Made by a program: the position numbers and the translations under genes
Notes under the pieces: generated by a model
What the model was told of the DNA's origin: nothing
The model's input: the letters and a program-made list of their open reading frames with translations, nothing else
Databases searched by the model: none
DNA from: a virus
Taxonomy: Duplodnaviria > Caudoviricetes
IMG/VR virus record: IMGVR_UViG_3300037851_001014
Coordinates: 18,823 to 82,822 of that record
DNA: 64,000 bases
Direction: 5' to 3' (one strand)
Shown here: positions 1,941-59,754 of the stretch, one piece after another
Layout of the letters: the number at the start of each line of letters is the position of its first letter
Position numbering within the stretch: the first letter of the stretch is position 1

Positions 1941-2480
1941 TTCTATCTCCTTCTTTCTGGGATACCTGCCCGTAGTTGGTCTACGCCTCTCCTGGTGGTG
2001 CGAGGCGCACTGTGGCCAACAGTTGCACTCCTCTACCCAGGCGGGCAGGCTTGCCGTTCATGCAGTCAAAGACTGTGTGCTGCAGGCTTGCACGCACATG
2101 ACCAGGGACAATCCACCTACTCCTATTAGTAGATTGCCCCTGGCTTCTGCCTACAAGCGAAACGGAGGCTTACTCCAGAGAACATCTAGGGGACAGCGCG
2201 CATGTTGTCCTCTATGATCTCCTCTGAGACTCGAACTCAAGTGTTCCACTCGGGCATAGCAATAAAGTGTTATGGGGGGGGAGGGGGTATGTTCACTTCT
2301 CCTCTCCACCACCCCCTTATATAGTCGTGCGAAAAATATTATGGCGAAACAGCCTGTTACCATTTGCGTCTATCCCGAAAACAGTCGTTGGGGGGTGGGT
2401 AATAATCTTTGCGGCTTGTTATTATTGAGTGTTTTGCATACTGGCAATTGTGAAAATTACCGATTGTGTCTACGGCAATC

Positions 2481-2489
2481 TGATATACT
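2481..2489 (+). promoter_or_regulatory. Extended -10 promoter candidate for the + arm
   Basis: TGaTATACT about 20 nt upstream of the ATG at 2510, with an AGGAG RBS in between. Confidence 0.4.
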
Positions 2490-2509
2490 GAAGTAGGAGA
2501 CAATATACA

Positions 2510-2704
2510 ATGGCAAACATACAGAAGGTGAAGGTTCAGGTGAAAGTGGACTATGTGGAGGCCAGGTTGGTGGATGTGCTGGTCGATGGGAAGTCGATAG
2601 AGTTCGAGGGGGCGCAGTTGTACTGGAACACTGATGGGGAAATTGACTGGTTGGCTCTCCAGATACCGCGGCAGTATCTGGACATACTGGCGAGGGTGGT
2701 GTAG
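2510..2704 (+). CDS. Small hypothetical protein (paralogue of 2943-3146)
   Basis: AGGAG RBS; DVLVDGK..W..D.L.LQIP aligns with the 2943 ORF. Confidence 0.7.
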   Translation: MANIQKVKVQVKVDYVEARLVDVLVDGKSIEFEGAQLYWNTDGEIDWLALQIPRQYLDILARVV

Positions 2705-2942
2705 GAGATGGCAAATATACCTGCAAGAGCAGAGATAGCGATCTAGATTGATGAAGATGGCGAATATTGCAATGAGTTATCCTCATGTTTCTGCACCTGA
2801 AGCAGGCTTAAGGAGCCACAATAAATCGTGTAAGTAAATACATGATATTGATTGATATTCATCGATAATTCACCATATTTTTTGTCTAAGTATCACTTAA
2901 ACAAAGCGGCACGTCTGTGCCATCCTTCCCGCAAATACTGAG

Positions 2943-3146
2943 GTGATGGAACTTGGTGGTACGGGGGTGCCGAAGATAAAGGATGTGTTAGCAGACGGCA
3001 AGAAGATCATCTGCGATGGTGTTGAGATGCGCTGGACTGCGGACTATAAAGATCACTTGTTGATACAGGTGCCTGCAAAATTTGTGCGGGTGATGTATGA
3101 CATAGCAGTTCCGAAGGACGAAATAGATGGCGGCGATAGTGATTGA
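2943..3146 (+). CDS. Small hypothetical protein (paralogue of 2510-2704)
   Basis: GAGG RBS; DVLADGK..W..D.L.IQVP. Confidence 0.6.
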   Translation: MMELGGTGVPKIKDVLADGKKIICDGVEMRWTADYKDHLLIQVPAKFVRVMYDIAVPKDEIDGGDSD

Positions 3147-3164
3147 TCCATTTGATCACTTTGA

Positions 3165-3380
3165 TTGGGACGACGAATGACGATCAGAGTGAAAGCCAGG
3201 GTGATGAAGAAGTTAACGATGTTGCTTCAGCCAGATGATGTGCTGGTGACGCATGAGACGCTTGGGCATGACATCATCGCCATAGAGAGAGACGGAAGCA
3301 TCATCGGGCACTTGGATCTCGTGAAGGCGAAGGTGGTTTACCAGGATAAAACTGAAAGTTTTTGGATAGACTCGCCGTAG
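3165..3380 (+). CDS. Hypothetical protein (start may be ATG 3177)
   Basis: ORF in the + arm with operon-like spacing. Confidence 0.5.
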   Translation: MGRRMTIRVKARVMKKLTMLLQPDDVLVTHETLGHDIIAIERDGSIIGHLDLVKAKVVYQDKTESFWIDSP

Positions 3381-3518
3381 CATTGTAAAAAAATGACAGA
3401 GATGTTACAATATTGACATCTCCTTGAATTGGGGTTTTGGGAAAGAACACGCCTGCTCTCCTCAGGCGTGTTCGCATTTATGGTAGAATTTTTGCAAACA
3501 CACATGGAGGATGCGACA

Positions 3519-3740
3519 ATGCCAAACACAGCAAGTTTGCTAGTAGAAGGACCCGAGTGGGAAAGGTTGGTTACGATATGGCTGGAAGAAAAGAAACCAG
3601 CCTTGATGCAGGTCGGCCATATCACCTACGAGGTAGCGACGCCGGACGGTCAGGACAGTCCGGTTTTTATTGCCAAGGGGAACGAACAAGGGATGTACAG
3701 CAGCACCAGCTTTATCTCTGGTGGGAAGGTGAGGAAATGA
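3519..3740 (+). CDS. Hypothetical protein
   Basis: GGAGG RBS before ATG 3519; ATGA overlap with the next gene. Confidence 0.6.
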   Translation: MPNTASLLVEGPEWERLVTIWLEEKKPALMQVGHITYEVATPDGQDSPVFIAKGNEQGMYSSTSFISGGKVRK

Positions 3741-11719: not shown

Positions 11720-13105
11720 ATGGCTGTTACTGCACAAGCTGGGATTTTCGGGTTTGGACCTCAGGGACAGAAAGGCACCGAGGCGAGTACGTACTACAAG
11801 CACAAGGCGATGGATATCGACCTTGGGCCGATCGATGATACTCGTTTGGGTGCTCTGGAAATTGGCTCTGGGCCATTCCCGACCTTTCCATACAAAGCTG
11901 GCTATGTGGTCGCCGGAGGCGCTGACCTTCAACCTCGCCTGGAAGATACCCTGGGATGGCTGTTTTATGCAGCTATGGGTGATCTTTCTACTGTTCAGGT
12001 TGGTGGCGATGCTGCCTATGACCACACCTTCAAGCCTCTCGCGGCAGATCTGTCTGCAGTGAAATGGCTTTCTGCTCGGAAGTATATTCCGAAGAAAGAC
12101 AACAACGCAACGACTGATCTTGGCGAGAAATTCGTTGACTGCAAATTGCTGGGTATCAACCTGGCTTTCGAAAACGATCAACCGGTTCGTGCACGCCTCG
12201 ATTTTGAGGGACTGGCCTACGAACCCGTTCCGGATCCCTCCGGATGGGGATGGGGCAATGCTGCCTACGAGGACTACCAGTCCGTTCCGGTTGGCTGCGT
12301 CGCTGGCGGATACGTCAAGTTCACCGGCGCTGGCTTGACTGACGAAGCATTGCCCGTTGTTCGAGCAGCTGTGAGTATCCAGAACGTTCCCTTGGATCTT
12401 CGCCAAGAAAAGATCATTGGATCGCCAACCCCCGAGGACATCACTGTTGTCGAGCGGCGTGTAACTTTCGATCTTTTGGTGAAGTGGAACAAGCCTGATA
12501 TGTACTTAGCTGTTCAGACCAACGACTTCGACGGCACCGCCTGGAGCTCAACACCTTTGGTTGGTGAAGTCGAGTTGTACATGCTGGCATCGTCTGTTAT
12601 CGGCGCGACTTCTCACAAGTACGCCTTGACGATCAATGCCCCAGAAGTTATGATGCAGCTGAATGGGCCTCCGACGATGGCAGCCGGGCAGGCAGTTATG
12701 CTGCGCTTGCTGGGTACTGCAATCGAGCCCAGCTCCGGCAGCTACACGACCGTGGTCATTCGCAACGGCGTAACCTCCTACTCCTGGCCTGCCGGCGGCG
12801 TTGATGCCCTGGCTCTGGATAGCAGCGTTCCGACCGACGGTGGAACTGGCATCTCCGTGTCTGCCGATCAGACCCTCACCTTCAATAACCAACTCATCGA
12901 GAGCGCACCCACTCACGTGGTGTTGATGAAGGCCTCCGATGGCTCGATCGTTGCTAGTACCAAGACGCTCAGCGGCAGCCGCCTGGTTGTCACGATCAAC
13001 CCAACCAGCAACCTGAGTGCGTCCACCGAATACATCATCTCGTACGCGGTGGAGGACATCTACGGCCAAAGCCTGGTCGGTGCGATCAACTTCACGACTG
13101 CGTAA
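11720..13105 (+). CDS. Major tail tube protein with C-terminal Ig-like (Big_5-type) domain
   Basis: Tube-like N-terminus (GFGPQGQKGTEA..VAGGADLQPR); C-terminal SSVPTDGGTGISVSADQTLTFN..VTINPTSNLSASTEYII. Confidence 0.85.
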   Translation: MAVTAQAGIFGFGPQGQKGTEASTYYKHKAMDIDLGPIDDTRLGALEIGSGPFPTFPYKAGYVVAGGADLQPRLEDTLGWLFYAAMGDLSTVQVGGDAAYDHTFKPLAADLSAVKWLSARKYIPKKDNNATTDLGEKFVDCKLLGINLAFENDQPVRARLDFEGLAYEPVPDPSGWGWGNAAYEDYQSVPVGCVAGGYVKFTGAGLTDEALPVVRAAVSIQNVPLDLRQEKIIGSPTPEDITVVERRVTFDLLVKWNKPDMYLAVQTNDFDGTAWSSTPLVGEVELYMLASSVIGATSHKYALTINAPEVMMQLNGPPTMAAGQAVMLRLLGTAIEPSSGSYTTVVIRNGVTSYSWPAGGVDALALDSSVPTDGGTGISVSADQTLTFNNQLIESAPTHVVLMKASDGSIVASTKTLSGSRLVVTINPTSNLSASTEYIISYAVEDIYGQSLVGAINFTTA

Positions 13106-13173: not shown

Positions 13174-13656
13174 ATGCCATTTACTGTAATTGCTCCGGAA
13201 CAAAAGACCTTTGTTCTTACCAGTCTCGATGCTTATGGGGCGGTTGATCCAGAACATCCCACAACCATATCGATTAAACAGGCACGAGTTAAACAGAACG
13301 CTGAGCGCTCACAGCTATTGAGCACCTTTAGAACAGAACGCGCTCGCAGCAAGGATGCTTACGGCGACGAGGTTGAGGCAACTGTTATCCAGTTGCCAGT
13401 GTATGACCTTGTTCTCAAAGAGATCTATCTGACAATGGTAGACTGCAATATCGGCACGCCGAACGGCAAGCCGCTTTTCACCTTTTCAAGGTCAAAAGAT
13501 GGCAGTTACCTGAACATGACCTGGGCAGCTTTTGCAGACGCAGCAGGCCTGCTGCCCGATGAGGCCCTTGAGGAAATCCACGGCAAGGTTATTGAGGTAA
13601 ACCCTCACTGGCGCATCAGTCAGGCAGACGAGGACTACAGCCTGGGGGAAGAATAG
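13174..13656 (+). CDS. Tail assembly chaperone (lambda gpG analogue)
   Basis: GAGG RBS; between tail tube and tape measure. Confidence 0.8.
   Translation: MPFTVIAPEQKTFVLTSLDAYGAVDPEHPTTISIKQARVKQNAERSQLLSTFRTERARSKDAYGDEVEATVIQLPVYDLVLKEIYLTMVDCNIGTPNGKPLFTFSRSKDGSYLNMTWAAFADAAGLLPDEALEEIHGKVIEVNPHWRISQADEDYSLGEE
13644..13650 (+). promoter_or_regulatory. Putative -1 programmed frameshift site GGGGGAA
   Basis: CTG GGG GAA GAA TAG at the end of the chaperone gene; the -1 frame is open into the 13668 ORF. Confidence 0.65.
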
Positions 13657-13667: not shown

Positions 13668-13973
13668 TTGCGTGAGCTCGAAGCAATTCTCTGGGACTAC
13701 TACGGGCAGCTAAACGAGATAGCTGCTGGCGTAAAGCCCAAGCCAGAAGATGTCATAGAGAAACCGGAAGCCTTGATGCGCTATGAGCAAGTCAGGGCAC
13801 TCAACATTCCTTACGTAGCCGGTGGCCTTGAGGATCAACCCTACATAACGCTCATGGAAGACGGCGTAGTTGAGATGTTTCTGAAAGCGTGGAAGGGAAT
13901 CCAGAAAAGGCAGGAGCAACAATGGCAGCAAGTATCGGACCACCAAGCGGAGAAGACTTTGCTAGGACCCTAG
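13668..13973 (+). CDS. Second tail chaperone frame (gpT analogue), probably made as a G-T fusion
   Basis: IPYVAGGLEDQP motif; no RBS before the TTG; -1 frame relative to the upstream gene. Confidence 0.75.
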   Translation: MRELEAILWDYYGQLNEIAAGVKPKPEDVIEKPEALMRYEQVRALNIPYVAGGLEDQPYITLMEDGVVEMFLKAWKGIQKRQEQQWQQVSDHQAEKTLLGP

Positions 13974-16900
13974 AAGAACTTATGGGGGACGAGTATCGTG
14001 TTCGCTATATGGGCGAAACCAGATACAATATTGTGCGCTCCAGCCCGCGAGGTGGGCCCAATGGGACTCCTGCTACCATTTCTGGGAACTTCAGTTTTGA
14101 CTTTTGGTCTGCGACTCGTTTCAAGAGCCAGTTTGGTGCAAATAAAGGTTCTGTTGAATATGCTCCGGTGGTGAAGCCAGATCCTTACGAAGAGAGAGGC
14201 TTTGTCGTTCCTGGTGGCATCACATCTGTTGTCGAGAGAAACGAGGAAGATAGAAAGAAGTATATCTCTTCTCACTTCGTAGAAAATCCAGTAACGAGGT
14301 TGGTAAACACACTGGTTTCTGCGTCTGATAGGACTCTTGAAGCAAGGGCGCGCGGCAGAGCAACCAGCACCTGGGAAGGCGCTGCCATGAACATTCTCTC
14401 CGAAGGGGCTCCTGGATCGGAAGAATATGCAGATGTAGCAGGCGGAACGCGGTTTGTAAATAGAAACAACATGTCGATGGTGCGTTCTGCATCAAACATG
14501 CTTATTCTGCAAACCATTACCCCAGAGGATGCCGGAAAAGACGAAAGGTCGATGCGTTCCAGCGCACTGGAATCGCTCAAGTCCTGGATTAGTACTCCGG
14601 CAGTGGCGCGCGATAGCGGAAATTTCCTGGCCTTCAACCAACTTGGTCTGGCGATTGGGCGCAAAAATGCCAATACACTGATACCTTATTCTCAGGGTTA
14701 TAGATCTGTAACTGATCCGTCCGGCCGCGAATACGCTGAAGTTTATCTCCCTGGCGACCCCTCTAAGTCGAGCAAACACTATAATGTCATGTACGGCCGA
14801 CGCGAGGGCGTTACGCCGTTAGATGCCACAGGTGTGCCAATTCAAGCAGGAGCTATTCGGGGCGCTCGGGGGTGGGGCATCAGGAGAACTACAGCAGATT
14901 ATCGTGGGCAGGTACCGCAAGAGAGTTGGATTGGTGGCTTGCTGATGACCAGGTCGCTGCCAATTCCGGGAACCGGACAGTATTTTCCACAGAATGTGTC
15001 TTCTGCTGGAATATCGTCTGTCGGGTTTGATACCGTGCGAGAATTGCCCGTAACCAGTGATATCGGCGGGCTTCTTTCCGGGACTGTCAAATACACACCC
15101 GCGTCCGACTTGATGGGCAGGCATCACCCCGGAATGACCAGAATGAGCTATGGCACACTGGAGGCACAGGGAGAGCTGCCAATTTCTCTCTCGACGAGAA
15201 ACAAGGCGGGCGGCTTCAGACCAAGTAATCAGCAGTTGGTGTTGCCGCAGTATTACGATCCAAAAACCGGCCTGGGTATGGTCTACAGCGAGGGAAACGC
15301 CAGGCTCGGGACAGAGATCACCGAGACACAGGCTGCGGCATTGTCCAAGTCGCTGGGAATTGACGTTCGGCTTGACCCCTTTTCTGATCGTGCGATGTGG
15401 CGTTCCGAGGGGTTCCTATCCACGGGCGCGAAAGTTGCCGGTCTTGGACTTAAGACGGCCTTGACCGCCATGCTTGGAAGACCGTCAATTGGGATTGGGA
15501 AAACTGATCTTCCTGTAGATATAGCCACCGGCGAAGTGAAGTCATTCCCCACGATGCTTCTTTCCAACTTTCCCACTCTTTCCAGGGCAAGGCAAGCCGA
15601 TCTTTTGCGTGAAACTGGCGCGCGCCTGAATAACCCCGCTTTCACACGAGCGGCGTCGCGTGTCCAGAAAGGCGGATATGGCGAAAGATTGGACATGGAA
15701 AGACTTGCAGAGGACATTTATGGCGTTGGAGCTCCAGTAAACGAGCTCATGAAAGAAGTTTACGGCACTGTCGTTCCCGGACTAGGAGAGAATCCTACCC
15801 AGGTGGAGATAGCCAGATACGCAGCGAGCGATGTTAATCTACGCAATCTTGAGCGGTACGGTATAGGGTTTATCGATCCCTCAATGGAAAGCAGGGGCGT
15901 TCGTGTTCCAGAGCTTAGTTGGCGTGTATCTAAGAAACAGTTCGTAGACCTTGAGCAGGCTTATCTTGCGGCAAACCGAGAGCGCGTTATAGCTGCCGGT
16001 GGCGATCCTAGGAAAATCTCTATCAAGGACGCACGCCAGGCCTTTTTGACAGAATATGGTCTGACGCCCGTGGCTAACGAGCCCGGGATGTGGCAAGCGC
16101 ACACTAAGGCAAGCGGTTTTTATATACGCGGGGCTTTGCCACTTGGGGTTGAGTGGTATGGTGCCGGACAAGTGCACGCAGAAGAGGCCCAGCTAGTCAA
16201 TGCTATCTCACCAGAATGGGCTTACCGACTTGGGATTGGGTTGACGCCAGGATCAAAAGGGCGCGGTGGGTATGACAGAAACATATCACCAACTCGACAG
16301 GCGAAAATACTTGCCGCAAAGACTGTTGCGGCAATGTACGCAGATACTCCAATGGGCATAGAGCATTCTGTTGTGACGGATACAATGGCCGGCAATCTGG
16401 TAGCAGATACTGATTTTATGGCCTTGCTGGAGAGAAAGCCAGATAATCCTGGTACTGTTGCCGACTTTGATATCGTAAGGGAAAGAATGCAGAGGGAGAT
16501 GGAGATTGCCTACGGGAATAAGGCAGCCAATGTGGACAAGGTTCCTTTGCAGTTCGGAGATCTTGAGGGCGCCTATCTCCTGCCTGCTGGATCAATCCGG
16601 GCCACTATGGCGGTGGATCAGGCTACAGGACAAGATCAAGCCAGACTTCTTGACAGATATTTAGGTACGCTTGGGCGCGCCTTGAGAGGGCAAGTAGCAG
16701 GCAAGCCAGGGGAAATTACGCATAGCCTGTATGGTCTCGCGGACACCTACGCCGAGTCGATGGGCGTAAGCTCACACACGAAAAGCGACATGGTAAAAGA
16801 TTTGATGGGTTCAGATCTCGGATGGTCTGTTGGTCGCTATGGCTGGGCAGGCGAGGTCCAGCAGCACCAAGTCACTGGCAGCAAGGCAGTCTGGCTGCAA

Positions 16901-19900
16901 CAGATCAGGGCAGAGATAGCTGAACAGGTTGGCGTTGATACAGAGAACAATCCGCTCACAGATGCCGAGATCGAGGAAATATATGGCAGTGTTGCAAATG
17001 TCTCTGCGTTTTCAGAGGGTGTTCCTGGCCTAGCAATGCGCTATCCAATCGTTGGCGGTTCCAAAGAATCTGCCCTGGGCGTTCGTTTTCTAACCCCCGA
17101 ACAAGCGCAAAAGCAAGGTGTCGCTACTGTGGATACCCCCTTTGGGGATTACTGGAACATATCTACCGGGTTGTCTTCTATTTTCCAGGGCGACTTCGAC
17201 TTAGATCAAATGGCGACGCTTATGGGTATAAAAGCGTATCGAGACAAAGGGGGCAAGCTACGCCATTCCTGGACGCAACTGGACGAGAAAGGCAATATCG
17301 ATCCAAAGTTAATGGCCTCTATCAACAGAAGCGCAACCATGAACTACCAGGACCTGCAGCGGAAAATGTTCCCATCGTCCGCTATGCAGAACAGGTTCAA
17401 CCCGCTTCTTGGAGCGTTCTCTGATCGGTTCGCCGGTCAGAATGTTGGAGATCTCGGTTTTTCGTACAGGTTGATGCGTAAGCAAATGGCCGCATCCAGA
17501 TTTTACAATATAGGCGAGCTGCTCACCGGAACGCATATTGTCCAGAAGGCAGCTGGCGAGGAAATGGGTGCGTCATACAACCTGACGCGTGCTCTTGAAT
17601 CGGCATCTATCATGTCTCGTTGGTCGACGGCAAGTATTCAAAAATCACGCGTCTCGCGTGCGCCAGTCTATCAGCCGTACCTTGACAAAAGCACGTCTAT
17701 TCCGGTATCGATGACTGAGATGTTTAGAACGGCGTATCTCAGCACTCCAGAAGGAGCAATGGCTCCTGAGCTTGGCTGGGCAACCCCAGAGGCTAAAGAG
17801 TTGTCTACCGAGCCTCAGTGGACAAAGAGAAAGATAGCACTGACTCCCGAGAATGCCATGCCGTTTCTGCGAGCTTTAACCGAATCTGCCGCGCGTCCTC
17901 ATGTTGTGCCTGGAAAGTTCGCTGATCTTCCATCGCCCAACCTGCTTGCCCGTGCCCTTGCGCCATACCCAGGGATGGCTTTTGGAACAATCAAGCCTAG
18001 GTACCTGAAAGCCTACAACAGCCAATTCAAGACATGGGAAGATCTTGTCGTAGGTGGTGGTACAGACGAGCAAATAGCACAGGCGGGAAAATTCTTCAAG
18101 GGCGTGCCACTGGAGGCAGCTATTAAATCTGCCCAGGAGGCTACCTGGGGACTTGGAGAGAGCGATCAAGACTTGCTGCTCGGCAGACGCACAAAAGGCA
18201 CTGCGGATGTAGTTGAGGCATGGTACAAACAGAACATTCCAGAAGATTTGCAACAGGTCTATGCCAGTACTCTTGCGCAGTCCATGATCGGAAAGGCCTA
18301 CTTCTCGGCGCAGGCTGATGCAACCAAGACGATACCATCCTCATGGGAAAAGTCTGATTTTGGGGCAGAGACTGTTCAACGGGCGCGCCGGTGGCGGGTT
18401 GGATACGACATGGCGCGTGGCATTGTCCCCGAAATGGGTGCGTTCAAGGAGACCTACGATTGGCTAAGTGGCATCGATAGAAGTGTGCGATCCCAGGGAG
18501 CGGAGCTTATCTTGCGCATGGGCAAGCTCTTTGGCGCAGCCGAGGCTGTACCTTTGTCAATGGCCGGCTCTCAGATGCTCTATGAGAAAGCAATGGCAGC
18601 TCCAATATCCTTGCGCTCAAGTACCTATGGCGATATCGGGAATCCTGTTTATACGAACAAGCTCGTCGGAGGGAACAAAAGAGTCGACTCGGGATTATAC
18701 TCGTCTGTTTTGAGCACGGTGGCGAGCACGCTCAATCTTGGCGGTATGGATGTTAATGCGCTGCAGGCTGCTTTCCTTCCAAGTGACGAACAAGGGCTTG
18801 CGCACATGAGACGCGGGAACAGGTTCGAAGACCGTCTCGCTAAAGTTGCTGGCGAAGCCATGTATCACAGCGGACTGTCTGGATACGCAAATCTTGGCTC
18901 GGGCGATCCAACGAAAGCGGTTTCGTCGGCTTTCTCTCTTGTTGAGGACATAGAGCTTGGGGACGGCCAAAGAACGACAGTCGTAATGCACGGAACGCCA
19001 GACTTTCTTCTCCCAATTGGCGGCAAACTGTACGAAGTTGAGACCAAGAATCCCCAAAAGCAGGCCGGTACGAAAGCTGCGCAGATGGAGAAGTACAAGG
19101 CGCAGACTGATATGGTTCGCTATATCATAGAGAAAAAGGTTGGTCGCATACTTAATCCAAATTTAGCGCAAGGCTTTAGGGACAAAGAGGCTGCCGAGCT
19201 TAGATCATCTTTGCGTTGGTATATGCCAGAAGAGCAGATTGATGAGGCATACGAAATGCTCCTCGCCCAGGGTGGCGCTGGCTCGATCTTGTTCAATGTT
19301 GGCGCTGACACAGATCTGTACAAAAGCATAATGCACGGGAAAATCGACAAAGCGCATGCTCAAGTCATGAAAGAAGTGGCGTCTGAAGATAGCCCGTATG
19401 TGGTCGAGAGGGTAGAACCTCTTGCGGGCGGACAATACGCAGAGCGTTTTGAGAAAAACAAAATGCGTGCTATCCGGGAAGTTTACAGCAAGCGCGGCGG
19501 TGTCCTCGAAGAGCTTGTTGGACTGTTGTCGCCTGCACAAAAGTTTCACAGAATGCGCCTTGGGCAAAACCCAGACCTGGCGACCACGTGGCAATCGAGA
19601 CGAGCAATGGATGTTCTTCAGCGCGCTCGGCATGGACTTCTGTCTCTTGGAAAATACTTCTACGATCTAAGGGAGGCGGCTCATGCCGCCAGCCCTGGAG
19701 CAACGAGAGCGGCAACTCCCGAGGAACAAGCCGCAGCTGCATCTACTCCTCCCCAGCCACCTCCAGTGGCACAAAACGCATCATCGCCGCGGGCACAAAC
19801 AGCAACCCCAGGAACAGCACCCGCAAGTCAGACACCAATTACCAACGCCGCAGATATGCCTATTGAGGAACTACGTGCACGGGCTAGCATGCTTGGATTA

Positions 19901-22900
19901 TCCAGGACAGCTGCTGCGAAGAAAACAAAAGAGCAATTGGTTGAGTTTCTCGATCCAGCAAATAAGGACAGGACACCAGTAGGCCAGAGGCTGAGCAAGT
20001 CAAGCATAAGCGATCTTCAGAGAGGTCTACTGGAGGCAGATTCAGCAATGGCTTATGCACCTTACGTGCCTCCTCCTGCCACGCCTGTTCAGGCAAATCC
20101 TGGACCGACTGCAGGAGCCGCGCCCCCTCCTTCAGTCCCGCCAACGCCTGGTGTCAACGCTGCTGCTGCAGCCGCAGCAACGGCCGGGCTTGCGGCGATG
20201 GCTGGTGGTGGTCAACCTGGTAGCCCTGGTGATACAAGTGGTTCCCCGGGACAGCCACCCGAGGGAGGCGGGTTTATCAAGCCGACCTCAGTGGCGCAGC
20301 AGATCGTCGGACTTTACCGCACGCGGGGACAGGCAATCCAGGAGGCAGCAATTGCCCTGCGAACTCAGTTTGGCGTTACAGAACGTGGAACTTTGAGGAG
20401 AGGTATTACGGGACGCGAGGAAGAATTTGCCCAGGCAGCCCTAAAGCATCAAGAGGCGATTATGGACGCCCAGGCTCTGGTGGCTATGGGAGTGGCTTTC
20501 CAGAAAGGGCCGCGTGGCGTCGATATGGGCTTTCTTGACAAAGATGCTGCTGATATCATAGACAAGGTAACGACAACTGGCACACCTATGGGGAAAGATC
20601 TGTTAGATCTGGAGGGCGCCGGGCAGGAGATGACCAGATATAGCAAAGCGGCGATCAAGAGAGCCAGGCTTGCAAACCTCGAAAGAAGGCTTGCCACAGG
20701 TGGTGTCGGCGACCAGATATCTAGTTGGTTTGGGGATGGTGTTACTCCCATGGATCCTGACGACCTGGCTGCCCAGATAGAGAAAAACCCAGCAGCCGCC
20801 GAGGCTTTCAGAATTGCTAGGAACTTTTCCAAAAAAGATGCTACCCGTATGGCGAGCGAGTTCCCAAGATCCGCAGCACTCATACAGTACACAGAGGGCA
20901 TGAAGGGCCATCCTGGGTTTGATGCCGCTATCAAAGAAAAGCCCGCTGCGACCAAGTCTCTCATTGCTGATGACGTAAAGGCGACGTGGGCGGAGAAGTT
21001 TACCAGGGCCGCTGACGAAGCCACTGCAGCGCTCAAGAAGTTTAGTGGAGCCGCCCAAAAAACAAGTGATCTCCACGAGAAAACAGCCCAGGCGTTGAAG
21101 GCTCTGAGCATAGAGGAAGCCTACGGCAAGCTCATTACAGCTGCCGCCAAGGTTGGCAAGGAGCCAGAGAAGGACAACCTTGGCAGACTCAAGCTATCGC
21201 CTACGGGAAGAGCACAGTACGAGAGTCTGACAGCACAGGAGGCCGCCGCGGCTGAGATTGGCGATGTCGAATCGTACCAAAGCGCCCTGACTGGATTCCA
21301 GCAGGCTACTACAGCCCCCACTACCAAGAAAGGGGCTATTGGGAGGCTTGTTGACAGACTTGCTGGGCCTCCTGAACCAGACGATCCGGCGATCAACATG
21401 CGCCGATTCCTGGGTGGCTTTGGCCTGATGTACCTTCGCAGTCTGTGGGGCATTGCGACTGGCGGTCTTGGATACGGTATGCAGGAGCGCGCTGAGACAA
21501 TGCAGCAGCTTGGCGGTCCCTCGGCGCAGATGTTTGGGGCGATATACAGACCGAATGTCCCTGGTGTTGCTTTGAGAAACATTATGGGTGCTACTGGCGT
21601 AGGCGGAAACCCGCTGCTGCAGTTCCAGGAGATGTATGCACGCACCCCCTTGCTGCAGGACGCAGGTACCGCACTTGGCGCAGGGCTAGGAACCTATGCT
21701 CTTGCCCAGCAGGTCGGAATGTGGAGCGGCAGCAATACCCTAAAGAGCATCCTTGGTAAATGGGCTGTTCCAATCGCAGCTGGGGTTAGCGCAGCAACGT
21801 TGCTGTCTTCCGCTGCCGGAAAGCTGTCAGACACAGAGAGCGTTGGCTACCGTCTTGCTACGGCGCCTGTGCTCGGAAAATCATTCACCGACGAGTGGGC
21901 ATACTTGATGGGCAGTCAGCAGCAAAAGGAGCAGATTGGCATCGCAATAGGACAATATGAAAGAATAACAAAGGGTGGATTTTCTCAAGGTAGCACCAGG
22001 AACATTCGGTCTGTGTCGCAGATGATTCCCGTCGATACTCCAGTAGGAGAGTATTTTGGAACAGTTGAGGAGAAGATCAGCCTGGCTGCGACCGGACGAC
22101 CGGACTTGTACAATACTCTTACCGAGGGCCAAAGAGCTAGCACCTATCAGCGTCTGACGCAAGCCCAGATATCGCATTTTGCCCCACAGTTTTCGGCAGA
22201 GGCGAGTCAGGCTGCTATGGATTTTGCCTTTAGAACAAGAGCCGTTATGGGGCAGACAGGAATGCAGACGCTCACGGCACGCATCCAGCAGGGTTACTCT
22301 CCGCAGATTGCCCAGGCATACATGGCAGCAAGTGGTTATTCTGTAGCCGGAATGTATGCTGGTGCTGCTGGCCCTGGGACGCAAGCCAACCTGATGAACT
22401 ATTACAATACGCTTGCTCCAATGGCCACAACGCAGAACTTGCCGTATCTCGAAGCGGCCATTGGCGTCATGGGAGCGACAATTCCCATGAATACCTATAT
22501 AACCCAGATGGGCATGCGTGGTGCGATCGGCATGGACACCGAGGCATATCAAAAGGCATTGGCTGCCCTGGTACCAGGAAGCTCGCAATACAACCAATAC
22601 ACTGCCGCAGGTGCTCAATGGGCGCGGCTGCAGGAATTTGGACGTGCAGCATCACCGCCGAATCCTGTAGACTTCACAACTATGAATGCTCAGGAAACGC
22701 GCCTTGAGGAGCTAAGGCAGGCTGAAATGCAAGAAAGCCTGAACACAGAGGATGCTCTGCAAAGAGCATTGGTTCTCAGGGGCTTCTCCGCCCAAGACGC
22801 CTACGCCTTCACCAGGGGGATTTATACAACAGCGAGGGGCGGCCAGCTGAGCGAGTATGAAACCACCACCGAGCTTGGCAGAGAACTGGAAAGACAGCAG

Positions 22901-25042
22901 CGACTTGGGCTAGTGGAGAAGTGGTTTACCGATCGCGGTGTTTCTGCTCGACAGCGCAAGCAGATGTATGCCCCAGAATACGAAAAAATGAGCATCTCTC
23001 AACTGCAGCAATACATGCAGAAGCAGAGCGTCGCAGAAGGGCTAGAGAGTGCACTTATCGGTGCAGGCGTAAGCTATAACATCAGCGACATTCTGGCCAT
23101 ACCTGGTGGCACTATGCAGCAGGCAGCTGTATCTGCTTCAGTGGCCCAGGAGATTCAAGCGCAAGCTGCCAGCGGAGTAACTGGTTTTAGCCTGACGCAG
23201 CTTTACGAAAACGCAAAAGGAGCGGGGCCTCAAGAGTTTGCTGGTATGGTTTCTACGCAGCAGTGGATGCGCGAGACAATGGCTCCCCTGATGCGGCAAA
23301 CAGGCAGGATGCCAGGATGGGCTGCTGATGCATGGGCAACTAGCGGCCAGAGTGCTGCAAACTGGGGAGCGAACGTTCCTCGTGCATGGCGGGATATCTA
23401 TCAAGGTGTTGCCCAATATGACCCCTGGGCATCTACCCAAATGTATGCCTATCAGCAGATGGGAATACAGCCACCCAACATCGGATTGCCAGAATTGACT
23501 AATCTCCCGTCCGAGATGGTAACACGGGACATCTGGCAAACCGGCCCGATGGCCGGACTTCCGCTCAATGCGCCAATGTGGACAGTCTCCGGTGCGTCGC
23601 ACCCCAACTTCCCGCTACTGCAGGCTACTACTGGCGGAGCAGTGAATTGGGGTACTGGCGTAGGCAAGGCATTCTCTCAGGGATACACGATACCCGGAAT
23701 GAGCTTCCCCGTTGCAGGCATTATGGGTATGCAGAGTTACATGCAGCAGCTGCAGTATCAGTCTGGCATGGCGCAAATCGGCAACCAGCTCGCTCAGCTT
23801 AACATGTCGATGGCTTTCCAGACTGGCGTTGGCCTGGATGCATATGCGGGAATAATCAACCCACAGACCAACAAGCCGTTCGGATTCAATACCGGCCCTT
23901 CTAGCTGGAGTATTCCTGGCGTTGGCAGATACACATCTGAGGGCGGTGGCATGTGGGGCATCCAGGATGCCATGCGTAACCTAGGTTATGCTCAACAGGA
24001 ATGGCAGTTTGGTTTTCAGGAACGCCAACTTGGGATGAGTCGCTCGCAGTTTGCCGAGAACTTCTCTCTCAACAGGCAACAGACCTTGATGCAGCGTGGC
24101 TGGGCAATGCAGGATTGGGGCTACCAGGACACCACCCGCAATCTGCAGTGGCAGTGGCGGCAAGAGGACTATGCCGAACAGGCAAGATTCATGACCGGTC
24201 GCGATCGGCGTCTTGCAGAGCGCGGAATGAAGCGCGAGACCACCATGTTCAATCTTGAGACTGAACAGATCGATAAACAACGCGAGCGGCAGAAAGAGAT
24301 GTGGAAACTGGAGGACGAGCGCTTCAAGCTGCAGAAGAAACACTTCGAAGAGCAGATGGTCATGCAGGAAGAGCAGCAAGATATGATGCGCAAGTTCTAT
24401 GCCGAGCGTATCGCCCTTGAAGAAGAGCAGATCAAGCTGCAGCGTGCCCAGCAGGTTCAGCAGGCGGAATATCAGAAGCAATCCCTGGGTATCCAGGCGG
24501 CCATGCTTGCGGCCCAAAAGGAATACTCAGAGATCCAATCCGGGATCGAGCTTGCTAACTTGGCGATCCAGTCTGGCATTGCCGATGTTCAGGCCAAACA
24601 GTCCGGACTCGTCACCTTAACCGAGGATAATATAGAAGCTGTGTTTGCCTCGCTAAACGACTGGATTGCTAGAGTTCTCGGTACTCTAGGCGGGGGACCT
24701 CCTGTGCCCACCACCACGAACCCCCCGCATAGTCAGAGTGGCTATATACCAGAAGAGGATATAGAGTCAGATCCGCCCACTCACGGCGGTGCGCACGGCA
24801 CTTTTGTCAGTGCTGGTCAAGGAACCGTTGTCAGCGAGGAGGGGCTAATCGAGTTCTTTACTCCCCAGAACAGCGGCACGATAATCCCGCTCAAGTCGTT
24901 CAATGCCTGGACAACCACTGTGATGCCATCGCAAAAGCCGGTTGTTGAAACGAGCACACCCAAGACCATAAACATTTTCATTGGTGATCAACACCTCAAG
25001 ACGTTTGTGCTGGACGCGATAGACGAAGCGCTGGAGGCATAG
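13922..25042 (+). CDS. Tape measure protein fused to an N-terminal two-barrel RNA polymerase, a PD-(D/E)xK nuclease and a HeH-like domain (3706 aa)
   Basis: AGGAG + ATG 13922; tape-measure position; C-terminal W/Q coiled coil, hydrophobic segments and VSEEGLIEFFTPQNSGTIIP end motif; RNAP motifs at 15425-15454 and 17192-17206; nuclease motifs at 19001 and 19040-19048. Confidence 0.85.
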   Translation: MAASIGPPSGEDFARTLEELMGDEYRVRYMGETRYNIVRSSPRGGPNGTPATISGNFSFDFWSATRFKSQFGANKGSVEYAPVVKPDPYEERGFVVPGGITSVVERNEEDRKKYISSHFVENPVTRLVNTLVSASDRTLEARARGRATSTWEGAAMNILSEGAPGSEEYADVAGGTRFVNRNNMSMVRSASNMLILQTITPEDAGKDERSMRSSALESLKSWISTPAVARDSGNFLAFNQLGLAIGRKNANTLIPYSQGYRSVTDPSGREYAEVYLPGDPSKSSKHYNVMYGRREGVTPLDATGVPIQAGAIRGARGWGIRRTTADYRGQVPQESWIGGLLMTRSLPIPGTGQYFPQNVSSAGISSVGFDTVRELPVTSDIGGLLSGTVKYTPASDLMGRHHPGMTRMSYGTLEAQGELPISLSTRNKAGGFRPSNQQLVLPQYYDPKTGLGMVYSEGNARLGTEITETQAAALSKSLGIDVRLDPFSDRAMWRSEGFLSTGAKVAGLGLKTALTAMLGRPSIGIGKTDLPVDIATGEVKSFPTMLLSNFPTLSRARQADLLRETGARLNNPAFTRAASRVQKGGYGERLDMERLAEDIYGVGAPVNELMKEVYGTVVPGLGENPTQVEIARYAASDVNLRNLERYGIGFIDPSMESRGVRVPELSWRVSKKQFVDLEQAYLAANRERVIAAGGDPRKISIKDARQAFLTEYGLTPVANEPGMWQAHTKASGFYIRGALPLGVEWYGAGQVHAEEAQLVNAISPEWAYRLGIGLTPGSKGRGGYDRNISPTRQAKILAAKTVAAMYADTPMGIEHSVVTDTMAGNLVADTDFMALLERKPDNPGTVADFDIVRERMQREMEIAYGNKAANVDKVPLQFGDLEGAYLLPAGSIRATMAVDQATGQDQARLLDRYLGTLGRALRGQVAGKPGEITHSLYGLADTYAESMGVSSHTKSDMVKDLMGSDLGWSVGRYGWAGEVQQHQVTGSKAVWLQQIRAEIAEQVGVDTENNPLTDAEIEEIYGSVANVSAFSEGVPGLAMRYPIVGGSKESALGVRFLTPEQAQKQGVATVDTPFGDYWNISTGLSSIFQGDFDLDQMATLMGIKAYRDKGGKLRHSWTQLDEKGNIDPKLMASINRSATMNYQDLQRKMFPSSAMQNRFNPLLGAFSDRFAGQNVGDLGFSYRLMRKQMAASRFYNIGELLTGTHIVQKAAGEEMGASYNLTRALESASIMSRWSTASIQKSRVSRAPVYQPYLDKSTSIPVSMTEMFRTAYLSTPEGAMAPELGWATPEAKELSTEPQWTKRKIALTPENAMPFLRALTESAARPHVVPGKFADLPSPNLLARALAPYPGMAFGTIKPRYLKAYNSQFKTWEDLVVGGGTDEQIAQAGKFFKGVPLEAAIKSAQEATWGLGESDQDLLLGRRTKGTADVVEAWYKQNIPEDLQQVYASTLAQSMIGKAYFSAQADATKTIPSSWEKSDFGAETVQRARRWRVGYDMARGIVPEMGAFKETYDWLSGIDRSVRSQGAELILRMGKLFGAAEAVPLSMAGSQMLYEKAMAAPISLRSSTYGDIGNPVYTNKLVGGNKRVDSGLYSSVLSTVASTLNLGGMDVNALQAAFLPSDEQGLAHMRRGNRFEDRLAKVAGEAMYHSGLSGYANLGSGDPTKAVSSAFSLVEDIELGDGQRTTVVMHGTPDFLLPIGGKLYEVETKNPQKQAGTKAAQMEKYKAQTDMVRYIIEKKVGRILNPNLAQGFRDKEAAELRSSLRWYMPEEQIDEAYEMLLAQGGAGSILFNVGADTDLYKSIMHGKIDKAHAQVMKEVASEDSPYVVERVEPLAGGQYAERFEKNKMRAIREVYSKRGGVLEELVGLLSPAQKFHRMRLGQNPDLATTWQSRRAMDVLQRARHGLLSLGKYFYDLREAAHAASPGATRAATPEEQAAAASTPPQPPPVAQNASSPRAQTATPGTAPASQTPITNAADMPIEELRARASMLGLSRTAAAKKTKEQLVEFLDPANKDRTPVGQRLSKSSISDLQRGLLEADSAMAYAPYVPPPATPVQANPGPTAGAAPPPSVPPTPGVNAAAAAAATAGLAAMAGGGQPGSPGDTSGSPGQPPEGGGFIKPTSVAQQIVGLYRTRGQAIQEAAIALRTQFGVTERGTLRRGITGREEEFAQAALKHQEAIMDAQALVAMGVAFQKGPRGVDMGFLDKDAADIIDKVTTTGTPMGKDLLDLEGAGQEMTRYSKAAIKRARLANLERRLATGGVGDQISSWFGDGVTPMDPDDLAAQIEKNPAAAEAFRIARNFSKKDATRMASEFPRSAALIQYTEGMKGHPGFDAAIKEKPAATKSLIADDVKATWAEKFTRAADEATAALKKFSGAAQKTSDLHEKTAQALKALSIEEAYGKLITAAAKVGKEPEKDNLGRLKLSPTGRAQYESLTAQEAAAAEIGDVESYQSALTGFQQATTAPTTKKGAIGRLVDRLAGPPEPDDPAINMRRFLGGFGLMYLRSLWGIATGGLGYGMQERAETMQQLGGPSAQMFGAIYRPNVPGVALRNIMGATGVGGNPLLQFQEMYARTPLLQDAGTALGAGLGTYALAQQVGMWSGSNTLKSILGKWAVPIAAGVSAATLLSSAAGKLSDTESVGYRLATAPVLGKSFTDEWAYLMGSQQQKEQIGIAIGQYERITKGGFSQGSTRNIRSVSQMIPVDTPVGEYFGTVEEKISLAATGRPDLYNTLTEGQRASTYQRLTQAQISHFAPQFSAEASQAAMDFAFRTRAVMGQTGMQTLTARIQQGYSPQIAQAYMAASGYSVAGMYAGAAGPGTQANLMNYYNTLAPMATTQNLPYLEAAIGVMGATIPMNTYITQMGMRGAIGMDTEAYQKALAALVPGSSQYNQYTAAGAQWARLQEFGRAASPPNPVDFTTMNAQETRLEELRQAEMQESLNTEDALQRALVLRGFSAQDAYAFTRGIYTTARGGQLSEYETTTELGRELERQQRLGLVEKWFTDRGVSARQRKQMYAPEYEKMSISQLQQYMQKQSVAEGLESALIGAGVSYNISDILAIPGGTMQQAAVSASVAQEIQAQAASGVTGFSLTQLYENAKGAGPQEFAGMVSTQQWMRETMAPLMRQTGRMPGWAADAWATSGQSAANWGANVPRAWRDIYQGVAQYDPWASTQMYAYQQMGIQPPNIGLPELTNLPSEMVTRDIWQTGPMAGLPLNAPMWTVSGASHPNFPLLQATTGGAVNWGTGVGKAFSQGYTIPGMSFPVAGIMGMQSYMQQLQYQSGMAQIGNQLAQLNMSMAFQTGVGLDAYAGIINPQTNKPFGFNTGPSSWSIPGVGRYTSEGGGMWGIQDAMRNLGYAQQEWQFGFQERQLGMSRSQFAENFSLNRQQTLMQRGWAMQDWGYQDTTRNLQWQWRQEDYAEQARFMTGRDRRLAERGMKRETTMFNLETEQIDKQRERQKEMWKLEDERFKLQKKHFEEQMVMQEEQQDMMRKFYAERIALEEEQIKLQRAQQVQQAEYQKQSLGIQAAMLAAQKEYSEIQSGIELANLAIQSGIADVQAKQSGLVTLTEDNIEAVFASLNDWIARVLGTLGGGPPVPTTTNPPHSQSGYIPEEDIESDPPTHGGAHGTFVSAGQGTVVSEEGLIEFFTPQNSGTIIPLKSFNAWTTTVMPSQKPVVETSTPKTINIFIGDQHLKTFVLDAIDEALEA

Positions 25043-32517: not shown

Positions 32518-33036
32518 ATGGCAGATGTCAAGGTAGAAGATCTAGCGGCAATCGCAAGTCCGGCATTAACAGACTTGCTCTACGTCGTGGCCGATCCGGG
32601 GGGTACGCCGGCAAGCAAGAAGGCAACCCTGGCGAATATTGCCCTGGCGCTTGGCTTTGGGGCGTTGACAGACTGGACACCCACCATTACACAGAGCAGT
32701 ACGATAACTAAGACAATAGTGGGTGCTAAATATTGCAGGATCGGGCAACTGGTGTTTTTGGATGCTGCTATGAACATTACAGGTGCGGGGTCAACTGGCA
32801 ATGCGATAATAATATCAAATCTGCCAGTTGCGGCTGCCGCGAATGGTGTTTGTGGTACAGCAAGGATAGATAATACTGGAACACTACTTTATGAAGGTGC
32901 AGCGTACATGAATGCAGGTGCAGGGCAGATAACATTTAGGGCACACCTGGAAACAAATGATATCGGGGCAGATCCCAGCTTTGCACTAGCGAACGGGGAC
33001 GTCATTAAGTTTCACGCAATGTATGTGGCAGCTTGA
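32518..33036 (+). CDS. Tail fibre tip paralogue 1
   Basis: MADxKV..DPGGTPASKKATLAN N-terminus; tandem triplication. Confidence 0.75.
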   Translation: MADVKVEDLAAIASPALTDLLYVVADPGGTPASKKATLANIALALGFGALTDWTPTITQSSTITKTIVGAKYCRIGQLVFLDAAMNITGAGSTGNAIIISNLPVAAAANGVCGTARIDNTGTLLYEGAAYMNAGAGQITFRAHLETNDIGADPSFALANGDVIKFHAMYVAA

Positions 33037-33050
33037 CAAAGGGAGCATAA

Positions 33051-33563
33051 ATGGCAGATACTAAGGTAACTGGACTCACGGAAATAACCAACCCTGCACT
33101 AACAGACTTGGTGTATGTGGCTGCCGATCCGGGGGGTACGCCGGCAAGCAAGAAGGCAACCCTGGCGAATATTGCCCTGGCGCTTGGCTTTGGGGCGTTG
33201 ACAGACTGGACACCGGTCATTATGCAGGGTGTAACAGTGGCTAGCACGACAATATATGCCAAATACTGCAGGATTGGGCCATTGATGTATATATGTGCCA
33301 GTGTAGCTATCGTGGGTGCGGGAACATCTGGCGCCGCTGTCTTTGTAACAGGTATGCCAGATAATCCTGCCTATATAGGCGGCTTTGGTATAGGGCTTGT
33401 GGAAAATGCTGGAACAGCGTTCTACGCGGGCGAAGCAGAATGCAACACAAATGGCACCATCGGATTTATTTGTCACCTAGAGATATCTGCTATAGGCATA
33501 GACCCAAACTTCGCATTGGCGAGCGGGGACGGCCTTTATTTTTTCGCGGTTTACCCAGTCTAG
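33051..33563 (+). CDS. Tail fibre tip paralogue 2
   Basis: GGGAG RBS; 92-bp block identical to paralogue 1. Confidence 0.75.
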   Translation: MADTKVTGLTEITNPALTDLVYVAADPGGTPASKKATLANIALALGFGALTDWTPVIMQGVTVASTTIYAKYCRIGPLMYICASVAIVGAGTSGAAVFVTGMPDNPAYIGGFGIGLVENAGTAFYAGEAECNTNGTIGFICHLEISAIGIDPNFALASGDGLYFFAVYPV

Positions 33564-33582
33564 GCAAAAGGAGATAACCGAT

Positions 33583-34104
33583 ATGGCAGACACTAAAGTA
33601 TCGGAACTTGCGGAAATAACTAACCCGGCATTAACAGACTTGCTCTACGTCGTGGCCGATCCGGGGGGTACGCCGGCAAGCAAGAAGGCAACCCTGGCGA
33701 ACTTCAAGCTGGCGATCGGCTTCGGAGCATTGACGGACTGGACACCGTCTATTACCCAGAGCGTATCTGTTAGTAAAACAGTCACATACGCCAAATATTA
33801 TACTATTGGGCCATTGATGTATATATGTGCACTTATGTCGATCACAGGCGCGGGAACCGGGAACAACAATATTTTTATTGGGAACTTACCTGCTCAGCCC
33901 GCCAGCAATGGGGTTTATGGTACGGCATGGATACTAAACAATGGAACAGCCTATTATCACGGACCGGCTTATTACACAACCGGGGCAGGAGGCGCGTTCT
34001 ATTTCATTTGCCATCTAGAAGTGGCTGGGTGTGGAATAGACCCAAACTTTGCACTAGCGTCTAGTGACATGATCGCATTTTGTGCGCTATACCCCACAGC
34101 GTGA
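33583..34104 (+). CDS. Tail fibre tip paralogue 3
   Basis: AGGAG RBS; 77-bp block identical to paralogue 1. Confidence 0.75.
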   Translation: MADTKVSELAEITNPALTDLLYVVADPGGTPASKKATLANFKLAIGFGALTDWTPSITQSVSVSKTVTYAKYYTIGPLMYICALMSITGAGTGNNNIFIGNLPAQPASNGVYGTAWILNNGTAYYHGPAYYTTGAGGAFYFICHLEVAGCGIDPNFALASSDMIAFCALYPTA

Positions 34105-44900: not shown

Positions 44901-45063
44901 CGTTACCAAGATAGCCGGCTTCCGACACATAGCGCGCAGAGACCTGTGAATCTCCTGCGTAGCAGGCAACAATCCAGTCGCCAACACTGGAACTAATAGT
45001 AACGCTGACGGTACTGTCGACTTTGTTTTGATTTGTGCCCAGGGGAGTGATGCTGATCGCCAT
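41977..45063 (-). CDS. Long fibre protein, 1028 aa, with about 28 repeats of ~21 aa
   Basis: Repeat consensus xGxLxKTLDxxxLxxxGxV; beta-rich N-terminal domains. Confidence 0.75.
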   Translation of the reverse strand: MAISITPLGTNQNKVDSTVSVTISSSVGDWIVACYAGDSQVSARYVSEAGYLGNALPLFMIASSVNSGNVATTILAGKVLSNITGKTLVLSSSGAKAASVYKVTGLSGYMTMPDEINSVSTVLVLLNDTQKRAGFGFVPGSCTVSRIDLLLQKSGSPTGTATLRIRKASDDSILGTLGTIDVSTLTTSSTFYTFNSGSVGLTAGEYVYVLLEYGDGTASNYVRLDVNDSTYNGLTARTLYTTSYLSQSVNAVIYRNFTGATVEMPFDKSATATGTGTSQSSGATATLSQADELVIGVAGTEDSGDAGDLKGSWTTGSGNVSGNEQQVGTTGGGDASNVNIYTAAEVVSATTAQTAAHTGTDSVDWAAAIATFMAAATAVTGTLSKTLASATSSSAGTVPSWGQTSKTLASSTLVSAGTVQVAGSLSKTLATATLEADGTLAAAGSLDKTLAGMLSASAGTIILSGTFSKTLDGIGVFAAGATSLAGSFSKTLDGIGISSTGAVVAVGSLAITLDDIALGSDGLVYHTGSLAKTLDGILASAAGGVAASGALTKTLDAAIAQSAGTAQAMGTLGKTLDNTTLSATASALVSGALSKTLDGVLLDAEGVAVSDITGDLDKTLDGIGLLASINIGVAASLDKSLDGAILESSAAVSLSGAVAKTLSDTALSSQATAQVVGSAEKTLGGLMLESEGTPRHSGSLDAVLSDVQLDASGATRAMGTTDKSLDGISVSGDGTVSVSGELNLSLSGIGLVAEGIAAETDITGMLSVTLVGLATSLLGSVQVSGSLAKALDPVDLDASGAISGAVSGALDKQLADLQAANLGVVSLSGSATIALAGITCLSSATASVSGALTSSLGDVSLDASGETETPLTGILLATLTGVSVAGSGNVSISGVTAKNLDNTSLSSQTLINLAGDLSSTLDPLSLDAAGSATTMEGVLHVTLASTALQSAGQLAWVGTLSVVLDPLRSYGTVSYLPGHRLTLAQLPYFYRAQNEQRNIQIASEQDEIAVKEENRDLGIPIENRFIRK

Positions 45064-58169: not shown

Positions 58170-58210
58170 TTTTGTTCTCCTGGAAATTCATTCCAAACTT
58201 GGTTGTCAAG

Positions 58211-59405: not shown

Positions 59406-59414
59406 CTCGCCTCC

Positions 59415-59747: not shown

Positions 59748-59754
59748 TTTTCCC

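Follow-up and report, generated by a model that had tools for sequence, protein, structure and literature searches.

What is encoded at the N-terminal end of a gene of ~11 kb that occupies the tape-measure position in an uncultured phage genome? The gene resides in the right-hand 64 kb of the 82,822-bp IMG/VR record IMGVR_UViG_3300037851_001014; this whole stretch, hereafter "the window," comes from a phage that is read as a siphovirus. An earlier note on the window had proposed that a single-chain two-barrel RNA polymerase (RNAP), with a beta-type barrel followed by a beta'-type barrel, forms the N-terminus of the protein encoded at this position, and the proposal is supported by conservation, synteny and structure matches. 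It is very probable that the N-terminal ~1,500 residues contain a two-barrel polymerase module. The full reading, according to which the protein is a tape-measure-fused two-barrel polymerase, most likely a DNA-dependent RNAP, that is delivered with the virion and performs early transcription, appears probable.

The gene is a single uninterrupted open reading frame (ORF) that encodes 3,706 aa from an ATG at 13922, or 3,717 aa when the open frame is followed from a GTG at 13889. The ATG, which was the start chosen in the earlier note, is most likely correct, because AGGAG is found 5 nt upstream of it and the N-termini of homologues align to its Met. Residue numbers given here count from GTG 13889 (P0001), and 11 is subtracted to number from the likely true start. 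The gene and its parts are as follows.

13922..25042, + strand: giant gene in the tape-measure position, single uninterrupted ORF of ~11 kb
13922..14800, + strand: N-terminal region, aa 12-304, conserved and covered by the family consensus
14801..18388, + strand: RNA-polymerase-like module, aa 305-1500 (phmmer matches over aa ~305-1498; AlphaFold model; Foldseek and VIA matches that are RNAP large subunits)
15356..16213, + strand: candidate beta-type double-psi beta-barrel (DPBB-B), aa ~490-775
16811..17344, + strand: predicted beta'-type catalytic barrel (DPBB-A), aa 975-1152, with R1051-Y-P1053 (17039-17047) and G1101-D-F-D-L-D1106 (17189-17206)
17510..17614, + strand: long helix, aa 1208-1242, candidate bridge helix (DSSP helix 908-942 of the model)
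18806..19288, + strand: PD-(D/E)XK-type nuclease-like domain, aa ~1640-1800 (GTPDF ... YEVETK in the translation)
19556..20098, + strand: Pro/Ala/Gly-rich low-complexity linkers, aa ~1890-2070 (composition by 250-aa blocks and translation)
20099..25039, + strand: tape-measure-like part, aa ~2071-3717, helical and Q/M/W-rich

An exhaustive phmmer search with aa 301-1500 as the query, over 1.84 billion cluster representatives, recovered 12 giant proteins of 3,011-4,095 aa, at 29-33% identity and with E from 1e-128 to 4e-21, plus two fragments. At no length did these representatives yield a stand-alone polymerase module. The alignment used below (A2) has 14 rows from 13 distinct proteins and covers a block of ~1,200 residues, in which 48 of the 1,200 columns are invariant. 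Among the residues shared by all 13 proteins are K515, G520 and K522 (consensus AKxAxxGxK; K515 is encoded at 15431-15433 and K522 at 15452-15454) and E755, G758 and E765 (consensus EWxGGG..EE). The invariant residues of the candidate beta-type barrel also include P532, E549 and K551. In the region of the predicted beta'-type barrel, R1051, P1053, G1101, D1102, D1104 and D1106 are invariant in 13 of 13, as are M1226, Y1230 and R1234 in the long helix (consensus MGxxYNxTRA), and an invariant YQPxLD follows that helix at aa 1261-1266 (17669-17686). Thus, the three Asp and both Lys, whose conservation among homologues the earlier note had singled out as a check, are present in every member, as is the RxP. 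The metal loop is variable across the family at its fourth residue (L, W, A, Y or Q). A more distant, truncated relative retains both Lys, E.K and EW.GG.

The earlier note had based its proposal on seven motif strings, all of which are found in frame in the one ORF, with small slips of coordinates. One such slip concerns the start of motif 4, which had been placed at 16781 and is located at 16796.

15422-15457, + strand: motif 1, TGAKVAGLGLKT, aa 512-523
15512, + strand: motif 2, PVDI, aa 542
16160, + strand: motif 3, GAGQVHAEEAQLVNA, aa 758
16796, + strand: motif 4, first part, KDLMGSDLGWSVGR (KDLMGSD...), aa 970
16865, + strand: motif 4, second part, HQVTG, aa 993
17039, + strand: motif 5, RYP, aa 1051
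17192-17206, + strand: motif 6, DFDLD, aa 1102-1106, the only DxDxD of the protein
17573, + strand: motif 7, SYNLTRAL, aa 1229

Considered alone, the motif strings stay within the reach of chance: [RK]xPx{20,100}DxDxD turns up in 8% of shuffled versions of the protein, and KxAxx(x)GxK in 14%. Conservation lifts them above it. Of the 48 invariant columns, 13 fall inside the 70 residues of the motifs, where 2.8 are expected (4.6-fold, hypergeometric p 1.1e-6), and motifs 1, 3, 5, 6 and 7 each hold residues that are invariant in 13 proteins at ~30% identity. The pattern of [RK]xP, 20-100 residues and DxDxD has been used as a filter for calling two-barrel RNAPs (Chaban et al., PMC10770324, Suppl. 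Data 4). The giant gene is the only ORF of the 82.8-kb genome that carries it, as R1051-Y-P1053, 48 residues, and D1102-F-D-L-D.

An AlphaFold2 model of aa 301-1500 (m5149634e609e), built from the 14-row alignment, has a mean pLDDT of 72 and a pTM of 0.40. When this model was compared with the PDB by Foldseek, the top 50 matches were all RNAP largest subunits (beta', RpoC1, archaeal A', Pol I A190 and AR9 nvRNAP), with E from 2e-3 to 2e-2; the probability was mostly 0.7-0.99 and fell lower in three long low-quality rows. Among the viral models of BFVD, the matches are giant-virus and jumbo-phage RNAPs, LEF-9 and crAss-like proteins, and the top ones are the second half of Microcystis phage MaMV-DC ORF65 and an uncultured-siphovirus "minor tail protein." In a structural comparison over 48,161 chains, the first 15 are all RNAP subunits. 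The alignments reach beyond the barrel (with vaccinia Rpo147 and Pol I A135 they cover 184-257 aa), and cellular beta' and Rpb1 barrels match the model better than does QDE-1. Single rigid-body alignments with QDE-1 and with P74-26 gp62 span 459-844 of the model, although inter-domain geometry is unreliable at a pTM of 0.40.

These matches give good support to a predicted beta'-type catalytic barrel with a metal-binding DxDxD loop. Its fold is seen in the model, as the invariance of the catalytic residues is in the 13-member family and the position of the gene is in the genome. The predicted beta-type barrel with two conserved Lys is moderately supported, through the invariant motifs and the alignments with A135 and plastid beta; it is split by a helical insertion of ~170 aa (aa 553-723). 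Thus, of the paired barrels that the earlier note had expected from AlphaFold and Foldseek, the beta'-type barrel matches RNAPs, and the beta-type barrel is the less certain partner. The 35-residue helix at aa 1208-1242 lies ~100 aa after DFDLD, outside every reliable superposition, and its position and motif make it a candidate bridge helix.

Directly behind the polymerase module, nuclease-like motifs are found, and the family consensus retains them as TPDF...FxExK. The linkers at 19556-20098 surround a short SAP/Rho-N-like helix-turn-helix motif, IEELRARASMLGLS...KEQLVEFL, which is located between the nuclease-like domain and the ruler part. The ruler part has one strongly hydrophobic segment (aa 2621-2639, 21749-21805) and, toward its C-terminus, a charged stretch that resembles a coiled coil. 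Its nearest ESM-Atlas clusters are the TMP_2, TMP_3 and Tape_meas_lam_C families at 0.90, which is taken as a lead only. The whole protein has no match to tape-measure sequence families (Pfam TMP_2, TMP_3 and Tape_meas_lam_C; PHROG TMP), and a tblastn search of cultured phages with the last 717 aa found nothing. The protein is therefore a putative tape measure, assigned from synteny, size, the hydrophobic segment, a helical and Q/M/W-rich C-terminal third and language-model neighbours. The earlier note had called the C-terminus a typical tape measure; position, composition and language-model neighbours agree with this description, but no family model for tape measures does.

The assignment by synteny depends on the following neighbours of the giant gene.

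Structural module, + strand: portal (PHROG 64)
Structural module, + strand: major head protein (PHROG 1357)
11720..13105, + strand: putative major tail protein, 461 aa, with a C-terminal Ig-like domain (Pfam Big_5, E 2.5e-10)
13174-13656 and 13668-13973, + strand: two small ORFs from the ORF list, the second in the -1 frame, arranged like the tail assembly chaperones G/GT

The gene order is major tail protein, G/GT-like pair, giant gene and tail-tip genes, and it is the same in three related viral contigs. Across these three relatives the entire structural module is collinear. Their major head proteins are 69-71% identical to that of the window phage, their putative major tail proteins 53-54% and their giant proteins ~30%. 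The G/GT-like pair is likewise conserved and syntenic; no canonical slippery heptamer was verified in it, and it has no family match. Because the whole structural module is shared in the same order, the window phage and its relatives are grouped, on this genomic evidence, into a single uncultured siphovirus clade. Among the relatives is a complete genome of 82,163 bp with 144-bp terminal repeats. No match was found among cultured phages for the head and packaging proteins, including the terminase. The ORF of 143 aa downstream of the giant gene that had been named Dit is unconfirmed, and no family model matches it.

The best precedent for such a fusion is gp96 of Thermus phage P23-45, which had been cited in the earlier note and does have demonstrated activity. 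The N-terminal part of gp96 (minimal fragment 327-1124, with DFDGD at 779-783) is an active two-barrel RNAP; the protein is found in virions by Western blot and on pre-early genes by ChIP-seq, and it transcribes the pre-early genes, including the gene of a second polymerase, gp64 (Chaban et al. 2024, PMC10770324). Like gp96 and its counterparts in P74-26, G20c and TSP4 (genus Oshimavirus), the protein from the window appears to place a single-chain two-barrel module at the N-terminus of a giant siphovirus protein in the tape-measure position, has a DFDxD preceded by RxP, and has a hydrophobic segment in its ruler part. However, the module is ~1,200 aa here and ~800 aa (327-1124) in gp96, the metal loop is DFDLD rather than DFDGD, and a PD-(D/E)XK nuclease-like domain follows the polymerase. 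In addition, Pfam detects no metallopeptidase domain here, no gp64-like second polymerase was found here or in the complete relative, there is no sequence relationship to gp96, and the head and packaging proteins stand apart from those of cultured phages.

Other single-chain enzymes share different features. The earlier note had stated that crAss-like virion RNAPs use a non-Gly residue in the metal loop, and a preprint does describe this DFDxD variant (DFDID; bioRxiv 10.1101/2020.03.07.982082). phi14:2 gp66, SPbeta YonO and Neurospora QDE-1 (the PF05183 clade) resemble the proposed module in having both barrels in one chain in the beta-then-beta' order, and gp66 also in its non-Gly fourth metal-loop residue. 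Nevertheless, PF05183 does not match the protein, and the enzymes of that clade show no fusion to a tape measure. The virion carries gp66 and ejects it, and gp66 travels from the capsid through a podovirus-type tail. With cellular RNAP beta and beta' (Rpb2 and Rpb1), the module shares the order of motifs: K...K, GG..E, a G.D-like strand, RxP, a GDFDxDQM-like loop and a Y.TR helix. It differs from them in being a single chain, in the ~170-aa helical insertion that splits the first barrel, in a Lys-Lys spacing of 7 (K515, K522) versus 8 in E. coli rpoB (K1065, K1073), in the absence of sequence-level significance, and in having no recognised clamp, sigma-binding or other peripheral domain.

Among viral proteins, the best structural match is the second half, as a BFVD model, of ORF65L from Microcystis phage MaMV-DC (Fukuivirus; 1,677 aa), with a Foldseek E of 2.2e-7 and a probability of 1.00. 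This protein (L016:2225-7258, - strand, equal to KF356199 49224-54257) is annotated as hypothetical. It contains the two-barrel RNAP signature in the form of RTP, 44 aa and GDADGDQ (DxDGD at aa 1352). Cultured cyanophages of the Ma-LMM01 type may thus encode an unannotated single-chain RNAP. In contrast to the protein from the window, ORF65L is a myovirus protein with no visible fusion to a tape measure, and BLASTP and hhalign reveal no sequence similarity between the two.

A number of results weigh against the reading of the protein as a tape-measure-fused, virion-delivered RNAP. Two of the seven motifs hold no invariant residue: PVDI, whose P is present in 11 of 13 proteins, and motif 4, which is loosely conserved in both its KDLMGSD... 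and HQVTG parts. Both lysines that the earlier note had equated with the nucleoside-triphosphate (NTP) site of beta are present and invariant in 13 of 13, but they are not spaced as in beta. None of the 14 rows of the alignment matches a Pfam family at E<=1, including RNA_pol_Rpb2_6, RNA_pol_Rpb1_2 and RdRP PF05183. The whole protein has no match in PHROGs, and neither phmmer nor hmmsearch with the family profile finds a match among PDB sequences. PF00562, PF00623 and PF05183 produced nothing in six frames of the genome and three related records. No similarity to P23-45 gp96 was seen by BLASTP, and hhalign against the gp96 family gave a probability of 0.2%. When trimmed family blocks were compared with E. 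coli beta and beta' by hhalign, beta' scored E 0.21, no better than cross-controls. The path through GSD.., RYP and GDFDLDQM in that comparison is collinear with E. coli beta', but its score is at the level of the cross-controls and is not counted as evidence. The predicted structure leaves doubts as well: the low pTM makes the mutual placement of domains uncertain, the structural matches have marginal Foldseek E-values and low TM-scores, and the strands of the beta-type barrel have low confidence. When this barrel was modelled alone (aa 471-800), its strands folded badly, and no match was obtained in VIA-wide or Foldseek comparisons. No candidate phage promoter emerged from exact k-mers genome-wide or from 8-mers common to at least five intergenic regions, a search that did not extend to degenerate motif discovery. 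Finally, virion location, ejection and activity enter the reading by analogy.

Two broader searches gave similar outcomes, as tblastn against 50,697 cultured-phage records found nothing and a word-indexed search of 5.8 billion proteins returned only the protein itself. P23-45 gp96, when it was discovered, also escaped detection as an RNAP by sequence profiles (PMC10770324).

The same observations can be read in other ways. If the module is an active two-barrel polymerase, it might have another job, as a primase-like enzyme, an RNA-templated enzyme (as QDE-1) or a PolD-like DNA polymerase, and be injected, along with the adjacent nuclease, for priming or repair of the phage genome on entry rather than for early transcription. 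This is unlikely, since the characterised phage two-barrel enzymes (YonO, crAss gp66, P23-45 gp96 and gp64, and those of PhiKZ and AR9) are all DNA-dependent RNAPs (PMC10770324), PolD is absent from the top 50 structural matches, and the genome encodes its own DnaB-type helicases and loader. Alternatively, an active RNAP might not be delivered as a fusion: the N-terminal module might be cleaved at assembly or act in the producing cell, for example in late transcription, leaving the C-terminal part alone as the ruler. A folded module of ~130 kDa does fit poorly in a tail tube of ~4 nm, long Pro/Ala-rich linkers lie between the modules, and the failure to detect a second RNAP in the complete relative implies that some enzyme must also serve the late genes. 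However, the fused polymerase of P23-45 is detected in virions and on pre-early genes, the fusion is kept in 13 of 13 full-length family members with no stand-alone form at any length, and Pfam detects no protease domain. We therefore regard separate action of the module as quite unlikely.

It is also conceivable that the module has no polymerase activity. An ex-polymerase might persist as a degenerate or structural relic that adds ruler length or serves as an assembly or plug domain, which would agree with the lack of detectable sequence similarity to active RNAPs and the poorly predicted beta-type barrel. Yet relics lose catalytic residues, and here, at ~30% overall identity, no family member has lost any of the three Asp, the RxP or the two Lys, while their neighbours vary freely, so that a relic is very unlikely. 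Tape measures often carry lytic domains, and the three-Asp barrel might instead be a cell-wall-degrading double-psi barrel of the MltA, 3D-domain, RlpA or expansin type. This is highly improbable, because no MltA, RlpA or expansin chain appears in the top 50 of the 48,161 compared, where the leading 15 RNAP subunits score ~2 Z units higher, and because the alignments with vaccinia Rpo147 and Pol I A135 extend past the barrel. Moreover, a contiguous GDxDxD with RxP 48 residues before it is a polymerase signature, and the 3D Pfam family has no match.

If the protein is a virion-delivered RNAP, it matters whether the phage has another. The earlier note saw no sigma factor or second RNAP in the window, and this holds for the full 82.8-kb record and for the complete relative. 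In neither genome is there another polymerase-size ORF with an RNAP signature, and searches with PF00562, PF00623, PF05183 and PF04542, together with motif scans, revealed no second RNAP or sigma factor; a PF00940 search likewise gave no match but had no working control. A very diverged second enzyme could have escaped these screens. A protein of 1,028 aa encoded at 41977-45063 on the - strand, opposite to the structural module, was considered as a second polymerase and rejected. It consists mostly of G/S/A/T/L-rich repeats of ~21 aa (...SGxLxKTLDxxxL...) and is probably a fibre; its counterpart in a relative is on the + strand.

Several other features of the window and its relatives were recorded. 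In the complete relative (G001), an insertion of ~5.3 kb (L004:2930-8220), with ORFs of 255, 726 and 364 aa, separates the major tail gene from the chaperone pair; the window lacks this insertion. At 32518-34104, three tandem genes of ~170 aa share identical stretches of at least 30 nt near their 5' ends (copies at ~32590, 33123 and 33655) and are read as tail-tip paralogues with a conserved N-terminus. Replication and modification genes are found on the - strand at 49646-51402 and 56311-63109. They include two DnaB-type helicases (49646-50500 and 61841-63109), a DnaC-like loader, a Sak4-like annealing protein, a C5 cytosine methylase, DUF5131 and DUF4942, and no DNA polymerase was recognised among them. 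Near the right end of the record, a perfect 14-bp palindrome, TGAACTATAGTTCA, is present at 63719-63732 and again at 63788-63801, 69 bp apart; it is a candidate operator or origin element.

In the proposed enzyme, the chain would run from a beta-type barrel with two invariant Lys, through a connector, to a beta'-type barrel with RxP and a Mg-binding GDxDxD loop, and on to a bridge-helix-like helix. The PD-(D/E)XK nuclease-like domain, flexible Pro/Ala linkers and ruler part would then follow. In cellular enzymes, the two Lys of the beta-type barrel contact the NTP and the 3' end. The polymerase would be built into the tail as part of the tape measure, with the C-terminus at the tip and the polymerase end toward the head. 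At infection, the protein would be expelled through the tube, ahead of or with the DNA, into the cytoplasm. There, the injected polymerase would read the first phage genes independently of host RNAP, and host or incoming nucleic acid may be the substrate of the nuclease. Since the searches detected no second polymerase, the later genes would fall to the same injected enzyme or to host RNAP. We infer the synthesis of RNA rather than DNA, the DNA template, the virion location, the ejection and the transcription of early genes, with delivery and activity drawn from analogy with P23-45 (PMC10770324).

Tape-measure-fused virion RNAPs have so far been demonstrated only in Oshimavirus (2024), and no report of tape-measure-fused polymerases outside that genus was found in the literature. 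The chances are about even that the ~82-kb siphovirus clade invented such an enzyme independently, without sequence relationship to the known one, or holds a very anciently diverged form of it, in which polymerase, nuclease and ruler are injected together and the polymerase is the only one encoded by the phage. If so, the whole program of transcription would have to be served by the injected enzyme, or by the host enzyme once the injected one has acted, unlike the relay of two polymerases in P23-45. Such a protein would also sharpen a mechanical question, namely how a polymerase of ~130 kDa and a nuclease pass through, or are stored in, a tail tube of ~4 nm.

A new and highly diverged branch would be available for comparing minimal two-barrel polymerases, and the giant "hypothetical" or "tape measure" proteins of metagenomic phages may conceal further enzymes that are invisible to standard annotation. 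Virion-delivered RNAPs allow phage transcription to start independently of the host and to evade defences directed at host RNAP. A second family, with no sequence relationship to the first, a larger module and an attached nuclease, suggests that fusion to the tape measure is a more general solution. Coupled with the structural kinship to the unannotated cyanophage protein, this would mean, if true, that tail-delivered two-barrel polymerases are a widespread phage strategy that extends beyond Thermus.

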